In this document: positions 3,988 to 28,748 of the stretch, piece after piece
Layout of the letters: the number at the start of each line of letters is the position of its first letter
Numbering within the stretch: the first letter of the stretch is position 1
Virus record (IMG/VR): IMGVR_UViG_2645727510_000007
Strand: one strand, 5' to 3'
Source of the DNA: a virus
Lineage: Duplodnaviria; Heunggongvirae; Uroviricota; Caudoviricetes
DNA: 35,552 bases
Program-made: the position numbers and the translations under genes
The notes under the pieces: model-generated
The model's database searches: none
What the model was told of the DNA's origin: nothing
The model's input: only the letters and a program-made list of their open reading frames with translations

Positions 3988-5013
3988 TTACGCCAGTTGA
4001 ACGGACACGAACGCATCAGGATCAGCCAGCAGCATCAGCGGTGCTGACTGAATCATGGTGAACTCACGCGCCGGATCGCCGGTGGTCACCCAGTTTTTCG
4101 GGTAACGGGCAGAGGCGTTAATACCTTCGCGCTGTGCGTCCGCATCCTGAATACAGCCATAGGTACGCAGACCGCGTGCCTGAGTGTTCCCCAGCACCAT
4201 CGTGTTGTCCGGAAGGAAGTTCTTTTTGACGCCGTTTTCCACGTACTGTCCGGAATACACGACGATCGCCACATCGCCATACATACCCTTATAAGACACC
4301 GCTTCGCCCAGGTCTTTTACCGCTGTCTCCAGCTCGGAATGAGAGCCGCGACGGGTATCCAGCTTATCCCTGACGGCTTTGAAGGAACGGAACAGCGCCC
4401 AGCCTTTCGGATCAAACACGATGATATTCACCACACCGCTGGCGTTCAGCGCGTAGGCTTCGATATCGTCGGTCGGGTCATACGTGGACTTGTCACGCTT
4501 GCTCCACTCCGTACCACCGGACTGCGTGATGTTGTTCGCCACACTGCGGCCCATATCCACCTCAACCGGATCAAAGGCTTCACCGGTCATGGTGTATTTG
4601 CCCTTAAGCACGGCAGAAACTGCCTGCATCTCTTCGACCTGAGCAATGGCCAGCTCTTCGTCACGCATGTTCTGCAGGATGATGCGACGGCGGCGGTAAG
4701 CCGGGTCCGCCAGATTCTGCGGATCTTCATCCGGCAGGCGACGCAGGGTCATCTGCGGATTCACCTCATGCTTCGGCTTGACATATCCCGGCGTAAATTC
4801 AGAGGTGGAGCCGCCACGGGAACGGATAACCTCACCGGAAACAATCGGCGAAACGTACAGCGCCATGTTTACCAGTCCCGGAATTTGTGAGAGATAGACT
4901 TTCTCCGTGGTGAAGGGATAGCTCTCACGGAAAAAGAGACGCAGAAACAGCGGATCAAACTTAAATTTCTGCTCATTTGCCGCCAGCAGCTGGGCGGTTG
5001 TGTACATCGACAT
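3988..5013 (-). CDS. E: Major capsid protein E
   Basis: ORF 3988..5040; internal Met at 5013 gives MSMYTTAQLLAANEQKF..., 341 aa, matching lambda gpE. Confidence 0.9.
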   Translation of the reverse strand: MSMYTTAQLLAANEQKFKFDPLFLRLFFRESYPFTTEKVYLSQIPGLVNMALYVSPIVSGEVIRSRGGSTSEFTPGYVKPKHEVNPQMTLRRLPDEDPQNLADPAYRRRRIILQNMRDEELAIAQVEEMQAVSAVLKGKYTMTGEAFDPVEVDMGRSVANNITQSGGTEWSKRDKSTYDPTDDIEAYALNASGVVNIIVFDPKGWALFRSFKAVRDKLDTRRGSHSELETAVKDLGEAVSYKGMYGDVAIVVYSGQYVENGVKKNFLPDNTMVLGNTQARGLRTYGCIQDADAQREGINASARYPKNWVTTGDPAREFTMIQSAPLMLLADPDAFVSVQLA

Positions 5014-13879: not shown

Positions 13880-13970
13880 AACGAGAAACCAAAACTTACA
13901 TCTTGAAATAATCACATTGATTAGATGAATATTTATCGCGCAGTGACATCATTTTTTAATAATAGTTCAA
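13880..13970 (+). promoter_or_regulatory. Putative porin promoter with OmpR-box-like sequence (ttacatcttgaaataatcac)
   Basis: AT-rich region upstream of the porin gene contains a sequence resembling OmpR-binding motifs of ompC/ompF-type promoters. By resemblance only. Confidence 0.35.
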
Positions 13971-19609: not shown

Positions 19610-20307
19610 ACACTTGCTCCTTTCAGTCCGAACTTAGCTTTGATTTCTGCGATCTTCGCCAAAGCCTGTGCACGATTTAGAGGTCTACCGCCCATGACAG
19701 GAAGTTGTTTTACTGGTTCAGGTATCGCCTCACCACGGTTAATTCGCGCGGTCATACAGGTCAGCTCATCGGCAGCCTTACGCCGTAATTCCGCGTCAGT
19801 CAGCGCATTGGCCCGCATGTTCTGGTACAGGTTGGTAACCAGCCAGTAGTGCGCGTTTGATTTCCACGGATAAGACTCTGCATCCGGATACAGTCCACGC
19901 TTCCGGCAATACTCGTAAACCATATCAACCAGCTCGCTGGCGTTTGGCAGTCCGGCAATAACGGATGCTTCTTCACGGCACCAGGCAACAAACTGCCCGG
20001 GTGATGGCAGGAATGGTCGATTCTGCCGACGGGCTACGCGCATTCCAGCGTTAACCTGTTCCATCGTGGTGATCCCATTTTCCCGAAAAGCCAGAACCCA
20101 CTGGCGGCGGATTTCGTTCAGTTCATTCTGGTCACGGTTAGCCAGGCTCGCCGGGAAAGTTGCCAGTAACTGGCTGAACACACCGTTGATGATCTGCGCT
20201 ACCTGCTGTACCTGTGGCTTTTCGTCGTACTGTTCCGGCATGTTGTTGGCGATCCGACGCATCTGCTCACGGTCAAAGTTAACCATCTGTGCGGCGATGT
20301 TTTTCAT
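19606..20307 (-). CDS. P: Replication protein P (DnaB helicase loader)
   Basis: 233-aa ORF essentially identical in length and sequence to lambda P. Confidence 0.95.
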   Translation of the reverse strand: MKNIAAQMVNFDREQMRRIANNMPEQYDEKPQVQQVAQIINGVFSQLLATFPASLANRDQNELNEIRRQWVLAFRENGITTMEQVNAGMRVARRQNRPFLPSPGQFVAWCREEASVIAGLPNASELVDMVYEYCRKRGLYPDAESYPWKSNAHYWLVTNLYQNMRANALTDAELRRKAADELTCMTARINRGEAIPEPVKQLPVMGGRPLNRAQALAKIAEIKAKFGLKGASV

Positions 20308-21233
20308 AAATCCACCCCGTAAATCCAGTCAGTGTTTGTCAGGTCGAGTTTTGGTTTGCTGGCTATCATGCCTGCCTGTTGCTTGTTACGGTTGATTTCG
20401 AGCTGGGTCCACTTGTCGCGGAGTTTGGCCGGACTCAGCACGTTACCGGACCAGAAGTTGTCCTGGCATGCCCAGCGGAACAGTACACACATGTCGCGGT
20501 GGTTACGTCCGTCACGTTCACGCATCAGGCGGATATCGTTAGCCCACCCTGCAAAATTCGGTTTTCTGGCTGATGGCGCAATGGTCTTCACCATGTCAAA
20601 CATCCACTCTGCGGCGGTCAGGTCTTCTGCTGTCCCCCACTTGCTGCCGCTCTGAATTGCAGCATCCGGTTTCACCACAGGAAGATCGTTTTCTGGCTGG
20701 TCAGAGGATTCGACAGAATTCTCGGACGAAAAAGGTTTTATATTGTCTTTTGTTAGTTTGTCTTTTGTATTTACCTGATTCGGGTAAACGTCTTTACCTG
20801 ATTTGGGTAAAATTTTCTTACCTGATTCAGGTAAATTTACCTCTTTCAGGTAAACTTTATTTTTCTTACCTGATTCGGGTAATGTTAACCATTCACTGAT
20901 CACATTATTAATGCCGGTATTCCGCCCGCTCTGAATAAAAATCCCACGCTTTACCAGAACACTTTTTGCAGCAGAACACTTGTGCGGCAATATCCCGGTC
21001 AACTCGGAAAGTTGCTCGTTGCTCACCCAATCCAGTTTTTTATTAAAGCCATATGTTTTACGCATGACAGCCAGGAAGACCAGAAGCTGGTGCTGTGTTA
21101 ATCCGGCCAGCATTACAGCTTCCAGCAACTCATTTGCAATGCGCGTATAACCATCATCGAGATCTGCCACGCGCGGCTCCTTTTGTGCCACATCCGGCAC
21201 TGGAAAATTGAATATCTCAGCAGTGTTTGCCAT
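20304..21233 (-). CDS. O: Replication initiator O
   Basis: ORF 20304..21314; SD-preceded ATG at 21233 gives MANTAEIFNFPVPDVAQKEPRVADLDDGY..., lambda O-like; iteron-encoded repeats (LPESGKK) inside; C-terminus ...NTDWIYGVDL. Confidence 0.9.
   Translation of the reverse strand: MANTAEIFNFPVPDVAQKEPRVADLDDGYTRIANELLEAVMLAGLTQHQLLVFLAVMRKTYGFNKKLDWVSNEQLSELTGILPHKCSAAKSVLVKRGIFIQSGRNTGINNVISEWLTLPESGKKNKVYLKEVNLPESGKKILPKSGKDVYPNQVNTKDKLTKDNIKPFSSENSVESSDQPENDLPVVKPDAAIQSGSKWGTAEDLTAAEWMFDMVKTIAPSARKPNFAGWANDIRLMRERDGRNHRDMCVLFRWACQDNFWSGNVLSPAKLRDKWTQLEINRNKQQAGMIASKPKLDLTNTDWIYGVDL
20771..20883. repeat. ori: Origin of replication iterons inside O (five copies of about 18-bp ttacctgattcgggtaaa-like inverted-repeat units)
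   Basis: Five direct repeats at about 23-bp spacing, each itself palindromic (TTACC...GGTAA), as in lambda ori. Confidence 0.8.
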
Positions 21234-21310
21234 AATTCCTCCCGCAATGAGTGTTGCACCTGAAAGTCGGTTCTGTTCGCGCAGACCGGCTTTCGCCATT
21301 TCTGAACCTG

Positions 21311-21850
21311 TCATATTGCCCCCAGCATGGTGGTGACCATCGCCATCAGTGGACCAGCCAGATCCGGGTCCACACGAAACATCGACACAATGCCTTCACT
21401 CATCTCCTTCAGTTTCTGGTGGCGTGGTGCGTTGAGAATGACAGCCTGTTTTGCCTCACTGAGTTCCTTTTCCATTTCAGCCAGCCGAGCCATGTAGCTA
21501 TCCTGCTCAACCAGGTGGCCGCGATATTCCAGCGGTAGTACCGCCAGAATTGCCGGGGTCAGTTCACGCACGTTATTTCGGTATTTTTCAGAATCGAATT
21601 TGTTATCGAGGAAGCGGAACAGCTTCTGGCGTGCACGGCTGACATCATCAGGGAAATCGATGGTGCCGCCGCCCTGCTCCCGATACTCATTCACAATGAG
21701 TGTGGCAACGACATCCTGATTATCTTCAGCCGACCAGGCGCGGACGGCATCACGGATTTTTTCGTGGCCTGGCACCTGTTTTGTTTGAGAACGATTTATC
21801 ACCGCAGTCGGGCTAAATCCGCTAGTCTGTTGGTATGTAAGTTGTTGCAT
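21311..21850 (-). CDS. cII-position regulatory protein, YdaT-like (putative)
   Basis: 179-aa ORF with strong SD (aaggag) between cro-like and O; contains NEYREQGGG motif recalled from YdaT-family proteins. Family assignment is by memory only. Confidence 0.45.
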   Translation of the reverse strand: MQQLTYQQTSGFSPTAVINRSQTKQVPGHEKIRDAVRAWSAEDNQDVVATLIVNEYREQGGGTIDFPDDVSRARQKLFRFLDNKFDSEKYRNNVRELTPAILAVLPLEYRGHLVEQDSYMARLAEMEKELSEAKQAVILNAPRHQKLKEMSEGIVSMFRVDPDLAGPLMAMVTTMLGAI

Positions 21851-21919
21851 AATTGACTCCTTTAGTTTGAATTGACTGCTAAGTTGATTGCTTATTGTTA
21901 AAGAGCGTGAAATGGAAAT

Positions 21920-22150
21920 TTAAGCTGCGTTCTTTTCGGTATGTGGAAACAACTTCGGAAGATCCGGGCGAATCTGGTATGCCTTCACTATTCCACCAGT
22001 AGCCGTAACAATGCTGCCGACATGTTCAGGGGATACCTTTGCTTTGTTGTGAAGCCACTTATAGACGGCCTGCTGTGAAACTTCGCAGGCAGCGCCCAGT
22101 TTCTTTTGTGAACCAACGATATTGATCGCTGTTTTGATAGCTGGGTTCAT
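21920..22150 (-). CDS. cro: Cro-like HTH repressor (YdaS/DUF1019-type)
   Basis: 76-aa ORF divergent from cI across an operator region; HTH-like segment (QKKLGAACEVSQQAVYKWL). Confidence 0.75.
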   Translation of the reverse strand: MNPAIKTAINIVGSQKKLGAACEVSQQAVYKWLHNKAKVSPEHVGSIVTATGGIVKAYQIRPDLPKLFPHTEKNAA

Positions 22151-22254: not shown

Positions 22255-22944
22255 ATGAAAACAACACTCTCAGAAAGACTTAAAGAAGCCAGATTAGCGC
22301 GAGGCCTTACACAAAAGGCGCTTGGGGATTTGGTCGGGGTTAGCCAAGCTGCTATTCAGAAAATCGAAACAGGGAAAGCTAACCAAACAACTAAAATCGT
22401 GGAGATCGCGAACGCTTTGGGTGTGCGCGCAGAATGGTTATCTTCTGGCGTTGGAAATATGTCAGACAGTACAGTGCAACCAATACAATCAACTGTCAGC
22501 CATTCCAAATACTTTAAGATTGACGTTCTTGATATAGAAGTGAGTGCCGGGCCGGGAGTCATCAACCGTGAGTTTGTAGAAGTTCTACGCTCGGTTGAGT
22601 ACTCGTTTGACGATGCTCGTCACATGTTCGATGGTAGGAAGGCAGAAAATATCCGCATCATTAACGTGCGTGGTGACAGCATGTCAGGAACGATCGAACC
22701 AGGTGATCTGCTGTTCGTTGATATCACGGTTAAATCTTTCGACGGTGATGGCATCTATGCGTTTCTGTACGACGACACCGCCCATGTAAAGCGCCTGCAA
22801 ATGATGAAGGATAAGCTGCTGGTTATCTCTGATAACAAGAGCTACTCACCGTGGGACCCGATCGAGAAAGACGAGATGAACCGGGTGTTCATCTTCGGTA
22901 AGGTTATTGGGAGCATGCCCCAGACGTACAGGAAACATGGATAA
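22255..22944 (+). CDS. cI: CI-type repressor (HTH_XRE N-terminal domain, LexA-like S24 self-cleaving C-terminal domain)
   Basis: From the Met at 22255: MKTTLSERLKEARLARGLTQKALGDLVGVSQAAIQKIETGK... (HTH); C-terminal domain has the catalytic Ser context (VRGDSMSGTIEPGDLLFVD) and Lys (HVKRL). Confidence 0.9.
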   Translation: MKTTLSERLKEARLARGLTQKALGDLVGVSQAAIQKIETGKANQTTKIVEIANALGVRAEWLSSGVGNMSDSTVQPIQSTVSHSKYFKIDVLDIEVSAGPGVINREFVEVLRSVEYSFDDARHMFDGRKAENIRIINVRGDSMSGTIEPGDLLFVDITVKSFDGDGIYAFLYDDTAHVKRLQMMKDKLLVISDNKSYSPWDPIEKDEMNRVFIFGKVIGSMPQTYRKHG

Positions 22945-23010: not shown

Positions 23011-23874
23011 ATGGATTGTGACGCTTTACAGGATATAAAAATCTCTCTTAGGTATGACGGAAAAGATGCTTTAAATCATGAAATAGATTTGAACTGCCTA
23101 GGAGAATCCCTAAAGGGTTTTTCTAAAGTTCTCTCAACAGCAGCTTCTTTCTCTGTTACACAAAAATATAGTAAATACATTAATTATCAGGAAGTTAAGG
23201 TTTACGCACGCGAAGCAAAAGCTAACTGCTTTACTCTTGAAGCAGTTCTTAACTTCGCCACTCAGAACCAGTTGTTCTCGGGGATCGCCGCAACTATACT
23301 TGGCGCAATACTACAATATATTTTTGCGAGAAATTCTAACAAGAAAGATGAAATGAAAGCTTTGCAGCAGTCACTTGAAAAGGCCATAGAGGCACTAGGA
23401 AACAAGGATGCTGGAACCATTGATAAGTTGATCTCTTTGATTGACCGAATGGCTGTAGAGCTTCGCCCCTCTGTAAGGCAGGCAGTATCACCTATTGGTA
23501 ATACTTGCGATCAGATAAGTGTTGCAACAAATGTTGACGGCTGCCTTCTAAAAGTTAACGAGAGAGATAAAGCTGAAATTGATAGGCTTGATGATGATGA
23601 AGTTCTCGGTCTTCGTGAGTATCGTGCTTTTCTTACAGAATTTGATGCACAAAATATGACAGCTAAAATAATTTTAGATGGTGATGACTCAAAAAAGAGA
23701 ATCACTGCTGAAATTAGCGATCCAGCTGCAGGAAAGAAGAATAACCCGTATATTAGAGCTCTTAGTGCATATATATCAACCAAAGGTGATCCATCTGCAG
23801 TATTCACTATAACCGCAAAGGCTACTGTTAAAAAAGGCCAGATAAACAGGTTATTTATTGTAGATGCGAAATGA
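23011..23874 (+). CDS. Uncharacterised protein at the rexAB position, co-transcribed with cI; candidate exclusion or abortive-infection factor
   Basis: 287-aa ORF 66 nt after cI with no terminator between, followed by a strong terminator; AT-rich versus flanking cI; one hydrophobic segment ([19 protein letters not shown]); no resemblance to RexA/RexB that I can recognise. Confidence 0.75.
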
Positions 23875-23878
23875 TTTC

Positions 23879-23905
23879 CCCGGCCGTCGTGCCGGGTTTT
23901 CTTTT
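23879..23905 (+). terminator. Rho-independent terminator ending the cI operon
   Basis: cccggc-cgtcgt-gccggg hairpin followed by ttttcttttg. Confidence 0.8.
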
Positions 23906-23999: not shown

Positions 24000-24075
24000 A
24001 CAACCAGTTATATCTAAAACAACCAACAAAACAACTTTTGTTGTTGACGATAAAACAACTATAGTTTTAAATGAA
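24000..24075 (+). promoter_or_regulatory. Left operator and pL region (OL/pL)
   Basis: Repeated AACAAC[C/T]AT-type half-sites (aacaaccaacaaaacaac, ttttgttgttgac, aaaacaactatagtttt) matching the OR half-sites; TTGACG -35-like hexamer oriented toward the early-left genes. Confidence 0.6.
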
Positions 24076-24347
24076 TTCATCGCAACAACACAACGATACG
24101 GCAATCACCTGATTCACCGTTGCGATGACCGCTTAGATCCGCAGCTTGAATTTCAGCAGGCTCCGGGGAGTGCGAGGGGTGAAGCGGACGCGTGAACGTC
24201 GGTGTGACCAGCTGAAATCAACTCAACACTTCATACCTCAGTCGCTTCAACGAGGCGACTTAGTTATGACAACCGGCGGCCATCCACCGCCAGATACTGC
24301 GCAACCCCTTATTTGTTCAGCAGCCCAGCTTACGGGCAGGAGTTTTT

Positions 24348-24554
24348 ATGGTTCATCAACATTACGGAACGCAGACCGTTAATCGAGGTGCGGTCATGCC
24401 AGGAATGCTGGTCAAACACAAAGATGGTACCTGGACTGCATCAGCTAATTTACGCGGACGGCTTTATCTGCATCGCGGCATCGAGCGCACTTATACCCGT
24501 GATTTGCTCGTGGAAGTTTTTCTCGACGGACGCGGCAACGGTCTGAATCACTAA
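24348..24554 (+). CDS. Hypothetical 68-aa protein at the kil position upstream of gam
   Basis: SD (caggag) 7 nt upstream of ATG; no recognisable family from sequence. Confidence 0.5.
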   Translation: MVHQHYGTQTVNRGAVMPGMLVKHKDGTWTASANLRGRLYLHRGIERTYTRDLLVEVFLDGRGNGLNH

Positions 24555-24629
24555 TCCCCTTTCCTGTTTTCCGAATCAGCCTGGCATTCCGCGGGCGATT
24601 TTTTCACAGCCATTTTCAGGAGTTCAGCC

Positions 24630-24931: not shown

Positions 24932-25717
24932 ATGAGTACAGCACTCGCAACGCTGGCAGGGAAGCTGGCTGAACGTGTCGGCATGGATTCTGTCGACCCA
25001 CAGGAACTGATCACCACTCTTCGCCAGACGGCATTTAAAGGTGATGCCAGCGATGCGCAGTTCATCGCATTGCTGATCGTCGCCAACCAGTACGGCCTTA
25101 ATCCGTGGACGAAAGAAATTTACGCCTTCCCTGATAAGCAGAACGGCATCGTTCCGGTGGTGGGCGTTGATGGCTGGTCCCGCATCATCAATGAAAACCA
25201 GCAGTTTGATGGCATGGACTTTGAGCAGGACAATGAATCCTGCACATGCCGGATTTACCGCAAGGACCGTAATCATCCGATCTGCGTTACCGAATGGATG
25301 GATGAATGCCGCCGCGAACCATTCAAAACCCGCGAAGGCAGAGAAATCACGGGGCCGTGGCAGTCGCATCCCAAACGGATGTTACGGCATAAAGCCATGA
25401 TTCAGTGTGCCCGTCTGGCCTTCGGATTTGCTGGTATCTATGACAAGGATGAAGCCGAGCGCATTGTCGAAAATACCGCATACACTGCAGAACGTCAGCC
25501 GGAACGCGACATCACTCCGGTTAACGATGAAACCATGCAGGAGATTAACACTCTGCTGATAGCCCTGGATAAAACATGGGATGACGACTTATTGCCGCTC
25601 TGTTCCCAGATATTTCGCCGCGACATTCGCGCATCGTCAGAACTGACACAGGCCGAAGCAGTGAAAGCTCTTGGATTCCTGAAACAGAAAGCCACTGAGC
25701 AGAAGGTGGCAGCATGA
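24932..25717 (+). CDS. bet: Bet (Red-beta single-strand annealing protein)
   Basis: 261-aa ORF essentially identical in length and sequence to lambda Bet. Confidence 0.95.
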
Positions 25718-26817: not shown

Positions 26818-27029
26818 CACCTCAGCAAGAAAACGCCCTTCGCAGTATTGCCCGTCAGGCTAATTATGAAATCAAAAAAGCCAGACAGCAGTTTCCGGAT
26901 AAAAACGTCGATGACATTTGCCGTAGCGTACTGAAAAAGCACCGCGAAACGGTAACGCTGATGGGATTCACACCGACTCATTTAAGCCTGGCGATCGGCA
27001 TGTTAAACGGCGTCTTTAAGGAACGGTGA
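26814..27029 (+). CDS. Hypothetical small protein
   Basis: ORF 26748..27029; ATG at 26814 (MTPQQENALRSIARQ...) is translationally coupled to the upstream peptide. Confidence 0.45.
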   Translation: MTPQQENALRSIARQANYEIKKARQQFPDKNVDDICRSVLKKHRETVTLMGFTPTHLSLAIGMLNGVFKER

Positions 27030-27051: not shown

Positions 27052-27072
27052 GGAGCTACAGGCTCCTTTTTT
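27052..27072 (+). terminator. Rho-independent terminator
   Basis: ggagc-tacag-gctcc hairpin followed by tttttt. Confidence 0.6.
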
Positions 27073-27633: not shown

Positions 27634-27682
27634 CAATCCTCGCATTGGCGGGGATTTCTTTTATCTGAAAAGGACAGAATAC

Positions 27683-28505: not shown

Positions 28506-28604
28506 TTGACAAATCCGCATTAACGGGGCTATATTCCGCTTCATGGTGCTGAACACACCTTGCAAAGCGGAAACCGCACCCGTCAGTCATGCGGCTTTTT
28601 TATG
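28506..28604 (+). ncRNA. Candidate small RNA or transcription attenuator: promoter, about 60-nt structured transcript, intrinsic terminator
   Basis: TTGACA (28506..28511), 18-nt spacer, TATATT (28530..28535); downstream alternative hairpins gcgg-aaa-ccgc (28567..28577) versus ccgca...tgcgg (28574..28594) followed by cttttttat. Confidence 0.35.
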
Positions 28605-28748
28605 TCCATTTCTCAGATATGGTCGGGTAGCGCGTATACCGAAAAACAACCGAAAGGTTAAGGATACGGGCCGACTTTGCACGGTGTTCAAGTACCTGAC
28701 CGCCCTGCTGAACACAGGGCTATCTGAACAAATGCAAAGGACATAAAA

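Follow-up and report, generated by a model that had tools for sequence, protein, structure and literature searches.

How does a lambdoid prophage that encodes no N protein express its early-left operon, and what does the short region between its pL promoter and gam contribute? To our knowledge, put is the only mechanism known for the early operons of N-less lambdoid phages. We have addressed this question for the IMG/VR virus record IMGVR_UViG_2645727510_000007 (Caudoviricetes), a stretch of 35,552 nucleotides (nt) referred to in its entirety as the window, and in particular for its interval 24076-24560. The window is a lambdoid prophage whose early-left operon lies on the + strand in this orientation. 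On the basis of sequence comparison, covariation and population data, we lean toward reading this interval as the untranslated pL leader of an N-less lambdoid prophage followed by kil, the leader (270 nt between OL/pL and kil) being a putative composite, cis-acting region of post-transcriptional control; it does not appear to reprogram RNA polymerase. An initial annotation had already proposed a cis-acting RNA region here, and this part of its proposal agrees with the conserved RNA structure of one hairpin (SL3 below) and with the lack of N; the identity suggested for this RNA, put or nut, finds no support here as far as family membership goes. The lineage is found in about two fifths of sequenced E. 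coli genomes, for instance LF82 and NC101, and its pL leader is unannotated in the records examined. When compared with HK225, the Klebsiella phage KO-TP1, HK639 and 25 kil loci of other Enterobacteriaceae, the leader splits at about 24230 into two modules.

A conserved hairpin cassette precedes kil

Module 2 (24228-24347) has the layout CAUAC, SL3, UUAUGA(C)AACC, SL4 (GGCGGCCAUCCACCGCC), a variable tail, SL5 and the Shine-Dalgarno (SD) sequence of the next gene, the numbered stem-loops (SL) being counted from the 5' end of the leader. Its elements and the gene behind it are as follows.

24231-24269, + strand: hairpin SL3, defined by covariation on 43 sequences
24266-24382, + strand: short leader open reading frame (ORF; MTTGGHPPP...), overlapping the start of kil in the window
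24275-24291, + strand: hairpin SL4, GGCGG-CCAUCCA-CCGCC, with nearly invariant nucleotides
within 24323-24347, + strand: SL5, GCCC (24323-24326) paired with GGGC (24334-24337), read from the sequence
24338-24342, + strand: AGGAG, the SD of kil, read from the sequence
24348-24554, + strand: kil, encoding a 68-residue FtsZ/septation inhibitor (PHROG 294, E = 1.3e-37 over residues 1-68)

The kil gene (207 bp), whose product bears the RefSeq name 'phage encoded cell division inhibitor protein', fills the last part of the interval and had been overlooked initially. The hairpin agtcgc...gcgact described at that time is real and longer than stated, with arms at 24231-24248 and 24252-24269; it is SL3, which is strongly supported as a conserved RNA structure. 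Over the 43 sequences, 96.9% of its cells are paired (31-45% once the partners are slid), and both sides have changed in seven pairs; the hairpin has a covariation score of 0.355, compared with 0.122 for shuffles and 0.01-0.07 after sliding. At the apex of SL3, GAG(G), which is SD-like, is paired with YUUY (GAGG with CUUC in the window), and the invariant base of the hairpin pairs CAUA with UAUG, so that the AUG at 24266 is buried. Covariation upholds SL3 and leaves the long-range stem of the upstream module (SL2, see below) with no convincing compensatory changes.

The stem of SL4 is unchanged in all 43 sequences, and in three of them the loop has one substitution, C to U at its first position. 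SL4 occurs only once in the window. Together with a U-run it is annotated as a terminator in the HK639 GenBank record, and in the window, as in most phages, it has no U-run behind it. In SL5, the GCCC/GGGC pairing is swapped for GCGC/GCGC in relatives. SL5 and the kil SD (24323-24347) form the most constrained stretch, with a nucleotide diversity of 0.0009, followed by the cassette (0.015) and module 1 (0.032); the corresponding values are 0.047-0.062 for third codon positions and 0.004-0.011 for first and second positions, kil itself being an unfair comparator because the sample was picked for an identical Kil protein.

A covariance model of SL3-SL4 finds a single match in the window (24228-24297, 86.2 bits, E = 2e-24). 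About 69 of 100 independently fetched HK225-type loci carry one copy of the cassette on the same strand, usually 0.5-1.3 kb downstream of their leader RNA, and diverged copies are present in put-type loci. In HK022 the match is weak (21 bits), SL3 being kept and SL4 missing. The cassette model has no copy in lambda, and SL3-SL4 is not in Rfam. SL3 belongs to a real kind of RNA control element that is undescribed, though conventional. The cassette is shared, with its covariation support, by all three classes of leader discussed below, in each case at the head of the delayed-early block. Since SL3 co-occurs with a true put element in HK639-type phages, and a weaker, SL3-only copy exists in HK022, it is not an equivalent of put. 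The HK022 homolog lies on the minus strand of the fetched locus (4400-4540), reads CAUAAC...GCUUCACUCGAGGC...GUUAUG and contains a 9-codon ORF; it is located directly after a terminator and just downstream of an IS903 insertion.

The leader ORF that starts within SL3 was considered as a conserved small protein and rejected. It is in the frame of kil in 72 of 73 distinct E. coli copies, all taken from viral contigs, and out of frame in the window through a 2-nt deletion; it comprises 21-28 codons in HK225 and KO-TP1, and several phages read SL4 in another frame while the nucleotides are unchanged. As frame and length vary though the nucleotides are fixed, the constraint is on the RNA and not on the peptide. 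The window itself carries a rare variant of the cassette tail at 24292-24313, with 12 substitutions and the 2-nt deletion relative to 72 of the 73 relatives; because this deletion shifts the frame, the leader ORF ends at 24382, inside kil.

These features suggest how the cassette might act. SL3 would block initiation at the leader ORF until its stem is opened or cleaved, since it pairs GAGG with CUUC and AUG with CAU. SL4, within the first codons of the leader ORF, and SL5, directly before the kil ribosome-binding site, may both shape access to that site. Together, SL3, SL4 and SL5 would gate the translation, and probably the fate of the mRNA, of the toxic kil or of whichever gene follows elsewhere. 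Leader hairpins that sequester a ribosome-binding site or start codon are known from lambda, namely the RNase III hairpin of the N leader and the alternative structures of cIII. Like these, SL3 is long and imperfect and buries an SD-like GAGG and an AUG heading the delayed-early block, and it stands just upstream of kil, the place occupied by cIII in lambda. Unlike them, SL3 has no sequence homology to the lambda hairpins, and the ORF that it guards encodes no conserved peptide.

No N protein is encoded between pL and gam

The distance between the pL -10 hexamer and the start of gam (24630) is about 558 bp, in keeping with the roughly 560 bp estimated at first, and the claim that no ORF within it resembles N is borne out: none matches an N family, PHROGs giving no match for the ORFs in the leader. 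The candidate considered is a TTG-initiated ORF (24146-24382, + strand), present as an open reading frame, in which the stretch RLRGVRGVKRTRERR superficially resembles an arginine-rich motif; moreover, the kil annotation is stretched over this frame in some phage records. That it encodes a small arginine-rich, N-like antiterminator is nevertheless extremely unlikely. The ORF matches no PHROG family (0), and among 50,697 phage records its tblastn matches are confined to the same 16 near-identical phages. It is preceded by neither an ATG nor an SD. The population data rule it out: C24239T introduces an in-frame stop in 20 of the 73 variants, four carry a 5-nt insertion, and a 2-nt indel sets the window apart from 72 of the 73 relatives. 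Several frequent substitutions are non-synonymous in this frame, with no third-position bias (codons were assigned by hand). The arginine-rich TTG ORF is not a gene, and the earlier remark that its likeness to N is only superficial was right. An N analog was also sought in the relatives and dismissed, the first pL genes of HK225, KO-TP1 and HK639 matching only PHROGs of unknown function.

The upstream module is an orphan of E. coli prophages

Module 1 (24079-24232) follows pL directly and contains the long-range inverted repeat that had drawn attention to this locus. The elements concerned are given below.

24028-24072, + strand: OL operators and pL promoter (operator repeats found computationally, hexamers read from the sequence)
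24079-24128, + strand: SL1, a 5'-terminal bulged hairpin with an inverted repeat matching at 10 of 10 positions, in both the minimum-energy and the centroid fold of the leader
24113-24232, + strand: conserved core of module 1, from the alignment of leader variants
24146-24221, + strand: SL2, the long-range stem of the initial annotation, pairing 24146-24157 with 24211-24221

The operators are direct repeats of AAAACAACT(T/A)T(T/A)GTT at 24028-24042 and 24052-24066, a word also present at OR. The pL promoter has a -35 hexamer TTGACG (24044-24049) and a -10 hexamer TTAAAT (24067-24072), both read from the sequence; it is absent from the list of a consensus promoter scanner, its -10 having no A at position 2. 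Prophages with other immunity regions become similar from 24079/24080 or, less often, from 24113; the end of the immunity-specific sequence at 24079/24080 agrees with transcription starting at about 24079. SL1 belongs to an immunity-linked variable segment that ends at 24112, and the O157 and EC20-72C-1 variants have a different sequence in its place; the core, 24113-24232, is kept behind three different immunity-linked 5' segments.

The arms 24150-24160 and 24208-24218 of the long-range repeat do match as proposed (10 of 11 positions), and the repeat extends outward to 24146/24221 with one bulge. The enclosed segment is indeed GC-rich (0.68 for 24158-24210 versus 0.505 for the whole window), and two small helices, likewise rich in GC, lie inside it (24160-24171, 24178-24209). 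The initial annotation made no mention of a third repeat, which matches 24077-24086 with 24119-24128 near the 5' end (10 of 10). The leader thus holds three repeats with 11-nt arms and at most one mismatch, where 0.06 are expected; only 4% of dinucleotide shuffles hold any such repeat, and 0.3% hold three or more. The fold is less clear-cut. Only the isolated segment 24140-24228 has the long stem SL2 as its minimum-energy structure (pair probability about 0.89); within the full leader the probability of SL2 drops to about 0, and a long-range alternative is better by 9.5 kcal/mol. The fold z-scores are -2.15 (whole leader) and -0.70 (24140-24265). The frequent polymorphisms in SL2 (A24155G, C24163T, G24184A, C24219T) are all compatible with its pairing, and the commonest, G24184A, disrupts the competing minimum-energy fold in 38 of the 73 variants. 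These population data mildly favor SL1 plus SL2 over the long-range alternative, with no firm decision between the two. The 73 variants show no convincing double or compensatory changes in module 1.

Module 1 is an orphan whose occurrence is confined to E. coli prophages. Of 5426 complete E. coli genomes, 2210 (about 41%) carry it, in no case with an annotation, and its copies are nearly always at least 95% identical; a lone copy at 86% differs chiefly in the immunity-linked 5' segment. Searched with an nhmmer profile of module 1, neither the remainder of the window nor 1.87 Mb of loci from related phages gave a match, and the 25 kil loci from other Enterobacteriaceae yielded no diverged copies for covariation. 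With a diversity of about 0.5-0.7 of the third-position rate, module 1 is only mildly constrained, and the evidence for a function of its GC-rich stem-loop is weak. The Rfam scan returned nothing in the leader beyond junk at E > 1, neither Lambda_thermo nor any other family matching; the same scan misses the annotated put of HK639, and its silence is uninformative about put. A processed, DicF-like small RNA (sRNA) upstream of the division inhibitor was considered and set aside, Rfam giving no DicF match.

Comparison with put, nut and HK225-type leaders

In syntenic N-less relatives, the pL transcript opens with a shared 5' hairpin, which is followed either by put or by a boxA and a structured RNA. 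The put elements act in cis, causing read-through of terminators in a manner dependent on the zinc-binding domain of the RNA polymerase beta' subunit. HK639-type relatives have a true put element after the 5' hairpin and share the backbone of the window (a YdaT/cII-like gene, kil, gam and the SL3-SL4 cassette). The window leader resembles HK022 putL/putR and the putL-like element of HK639 in being a structured, GC-rich, noncoding RNA directly after pL in the absence of N; like put, module 1 lies shortly after the early promoter, beginning at the inferred pL start, about 24079. The initial annotation had proposed that the GC-rich element may be put-like, or else a divergent nut site. In other respects it differs from put. 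The put signature, GAACGGC...GUCGG...GGCGGGYUCAGGAnGAnCGGCAAU, is missing from the window leader, which is unlike put both in sequence and in secondary structure. Trained on 12 put sequences, a covariance model that scores 95 bits on held-out put loci has no match in 24079-24350; its best match in the window has E = 0.38 (25007-25070, minus strand). Smith-Waterman alignments of module 1 with putL, putR, HK639 put and the HK225 leader are no better than those of shuffles. Unlike put systems, the window has no copy behind pR and no terminator immediately after the element. A counterpart downstream of pR, which the initial annotation had suggested looking for, was found neither with the module 1 nhmmer profile nor with the cassette covariance model; the HK639 record annotates a single, putL-like element, and the missing second copy is thus weak evidence.

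The nut alternative fares no better. Even with 3 mismatches allowed, 24079-24347 contains no boxA (CGCUCUUA / UGCUCUUUAACAA); the window has a single good match, on the minus strand (21895-21907), and a nut site would have no N protein to act on it. Inspection of SL1 to SL5 by eye shows no boxB hairpin with its GNRA-like pentaloop, that is, no loop of the GAAAA or GACAA type on a stem of 5 bp. The position just downstream of pL, and the canonical boxA CGCUCUUUAACAA which the pR transcript carries after cro and before the next gene, would agree with a divergent put element or with a lambda-type nutL (boxA plus boxB). Given the negative put model, alignments at the level of shuffles and the lack of a leader boxA and of N, we hold this reading very unlikely, sequence and structure both speaking against membership of either class.

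The boxA at 21895-21907 deserves mention in its own right. It is near-consensus, with one mismatch to the rrn boxA, and sits in the 70-nt gap between the cro-like and the YdaT/cII-like gene of a phage without N. About 0.04 chance matches as good as this one are expected in the window, and the element is confined to phages with the same immunity region. Lambda carries nutR at the corresponding position.

The second class of relatives is represented by HK225 (fetched locus 1240-1460), KO-TP1 (fetched locus 1840-2060) and at least 120 viral contigs. Their pL leader consists of the 5' hairpin, a near-consensus boxA (UGCUYUUUAACAA) and a multi-helix core of about 115 nt, in which seven pairs show compensatory changes among five sequences; this RNA is not in Rfam and is likely a Nus-factor-dependent antitermination site. 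Like it, the window leader occupies the slot after pL, precedes the cassette and kil, and has a long-range stem around GC-rich helices. Unlike it, the window leader is non-homologous and without boxA, and covariation is seen in the HK225-type RNA and not in module 1. The HK225-type covariance model, whose controls score 135-147 bits, has no match in the window leader at E <= 10. An apparent resemblance in AUGACC-GCUUAGAUCC / AUGACCUGUUUAGACCC, with perhaps a long-range stem in common, was not confirmed by this model. The three leader types of N-less relatives (put, boxA plus structured RNA, and the orphan) are mutually exclusive.

Read-through or translational control

In the relatives, the leader RNA is followed by one to four small genes, an intrinsic terminator and then the cassette. 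This terminator is missing from the lineage of the window. A run of at least five T within 16 nt upstream of the cassette occurs in 104 of 108 distinct contexts outside the lineage and in none of 12 within it, and no terminator-like site was found on the + strand between 23896 and 24497. The lineage is thus without the intrinsic terminator that directly precedes the cassette in its relatives. This loss may explain why kil-gam-bet-exo need no N or put: in a lineage without both the antiterminator RNA and the terminator, these genes could be transcribed straight from pL. Module 1 fills the slot where relatives hold an antiterminator RNA, immediate-early genes and an intrinsic terminator, and would be a lineage-specific structured spacer with at most a modest role. 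The anatomy, the covariation of SL3, the distribution, the lack of membership in the put and HK225-type families and the loss of the terminator are what the data show; translational gating by the cassette, and the absence of a need for antitermination, are what we infer.

Several observations weigh against this reading. Module 1 lies exactly where relatives have an antiterminator, proven in the case of put and likely in that of the boxA RNA, and its core starts at the end of the immunity-specific DNA, as lambda nutL does. The operon still contains terminator-like hairpins farther along (27052-27066, 27635-27656), which may call for antitermination. The leader ORF of several phages stops well short of the next gene, so that simple translational coupling is not the general mechanism. 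Finally, the near-invariance of SL4, loop included, suggests a specific partner that our model does not name.

The first of these points also favor an alternative, by analogy with put, in which module 1 (core 24113-24232, with SL2) would be a third kind of processive antiterminator RNA acting in cis, unrelated to the others; it would modify the polymerase transcribing it and so allow read-through of terminators further down the pL operon. The mutual exclusivity of the leader types, the long inverted repeats in which the leader is rich, the lack of N and the terminator-like sites on the + strand at 24579, 27052 and 27635 would all suit such a function. We nevertheless regard it as rather unlikely. 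Module 1 resembles neither put nor the HK225-type RNA in sequence or structure, it evolves at about 0.5-0.7 of the third-position rate and lacks compensatory changes, the full leader does not have SL2 in its equilibrium fold, and, with the pre-cassette terminator of the relatives missing, the most obvious target is gone; the lack of a second copy behind pR also counts against it, weakly, given the single put annotated in HK639. We give a similarly low probability to the broader proposal that the core would be an unrecognized antiterminator or anti-Rho RNA replacing N and put, and/or that SL3-SL4 would bind polymerase or another factor across the HK022/HK639/HK225 supergroup. Should RNA polymerase prove to be the target of the orphan leader, the latter would constitute a second family of RNA-only processive antiterminators.

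Of the terminator-like sites, the one nearest to the leader is the following.

24579-24596, + strand: weak terminator-like hairpin and U-run in the gap between kil and gam

A near-identical sequence is present inside the lambda gamL coding sequence, which makes a terminator role for this site doubtful. The two further hairpins, 27052-27066 and 27635-27656 (+ strand), are good intrinsic-terminator-like structures in intergenic gaps of the pL operon, and flank a TraR/DksA-like gene and a gene for a 95-residue protein. They mark either the end of the operon or sites that need read-through.

Complementarity to GcvB

The 5' end of the inferred pL transcript contains a further motif.

24083-24094, + strand: CA-rich tract CAACAACACAAC, a perfect 12-nt complement of the R1 seed of GcvB (GUUGUGUUGUUG, MG1655 gcvB)

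The duplex energy of this tract with GcvB ranks 11th of 2290 windows, and the tract is nearly invariant in the 69 variants having this 5' segment. A prophage anti-sRNA directed against GcvB, AgvB, acts through the same kind of CACAACA-type motif (PMC4104026). The 5' end of the pL transcript might therefore be tied to GcvB, either as a sponge or as a GcvB/Hfq target whose stability or Rho access would be altered, an idea compatible with each of the other explanations. We consider it quite unlikely. The match was found post hoc, and a second 12-mer match to GcvB occurs at 26934, about 0.8 such matches to any part of GcvB being expected by chance in the window. Moreover, the tract lies partly within the SL1 stem, the EC20-72C-1 and O157 variants lack it or have it in reduced form, and pL is repressed in lysogens. 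Like AgvB, the tract is of CACAAC type, is complementary to the GcvB R1 seed and stands at the 5' end of a prophage transcript; unlike AgvB, an sRNA of 51-60 nt with its own terminator at the pR' moron site (PMC4104026), it begins a long mRNA leader. The conserved 3' half of AgvB (about 42 nt with the terminator) has no match in the window within 3 mismatches, and identity with AgvB is ruled out by this missing 3' domain and by the location of AgvB at the pR' moron site.

Prophage context

Over the stretch queried (24030-24350), the window is identical to E. coli PS1Thumoskin9, and the nearest isolated phages to this prophage are Bievrevirus 4A7 and its relatives. The genes and sites around the leader are arranged as follows.

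20304-21314, - strand: O-like replication gene
21311-21850, - strand: YdaT/cII-like gene
21920-22150, - strand: cro-like gene
22255-22944, + strand: cI (S24 peptidase)
23011-23874, + strand: gene for a 287-residue protein in the rex position
23879-23896: terminator between the rex-position gene and OL/pL
from 24630, + strand: gam, followed by bet and exo

The product of the gene at 23011-23874, located between cI and pL in the position of rexAB, belongs to PHROG 5147, a family of unknown function, and is a weak PADLOC candidate (PDC-S42, E = 1.5e-4). In relatives the same slot holds a SIR2-family, DUF6414 or ASCH gene, which suggests that it is a variable hotspot for defense or exclusion functions. 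In the pR operon of HK639, an 'M3-like RNA' is annotated behind the cII-like gene (HK639 locus 13911-13970); no counterpart was found in the window, whose cII-like gene overlaps the O-like one. Further along the window, Rfam detects a match to sRNA-Xcc1 (RF02221), the sole family found, at 28621-28709 (+ strand), with 69.3 bits against a gathering score of 53. This match is flanked by two anti-repressor-like genes, and a strong promoter-like site (11 of 12 positions) lies just upstream of it, at 28506-28535.

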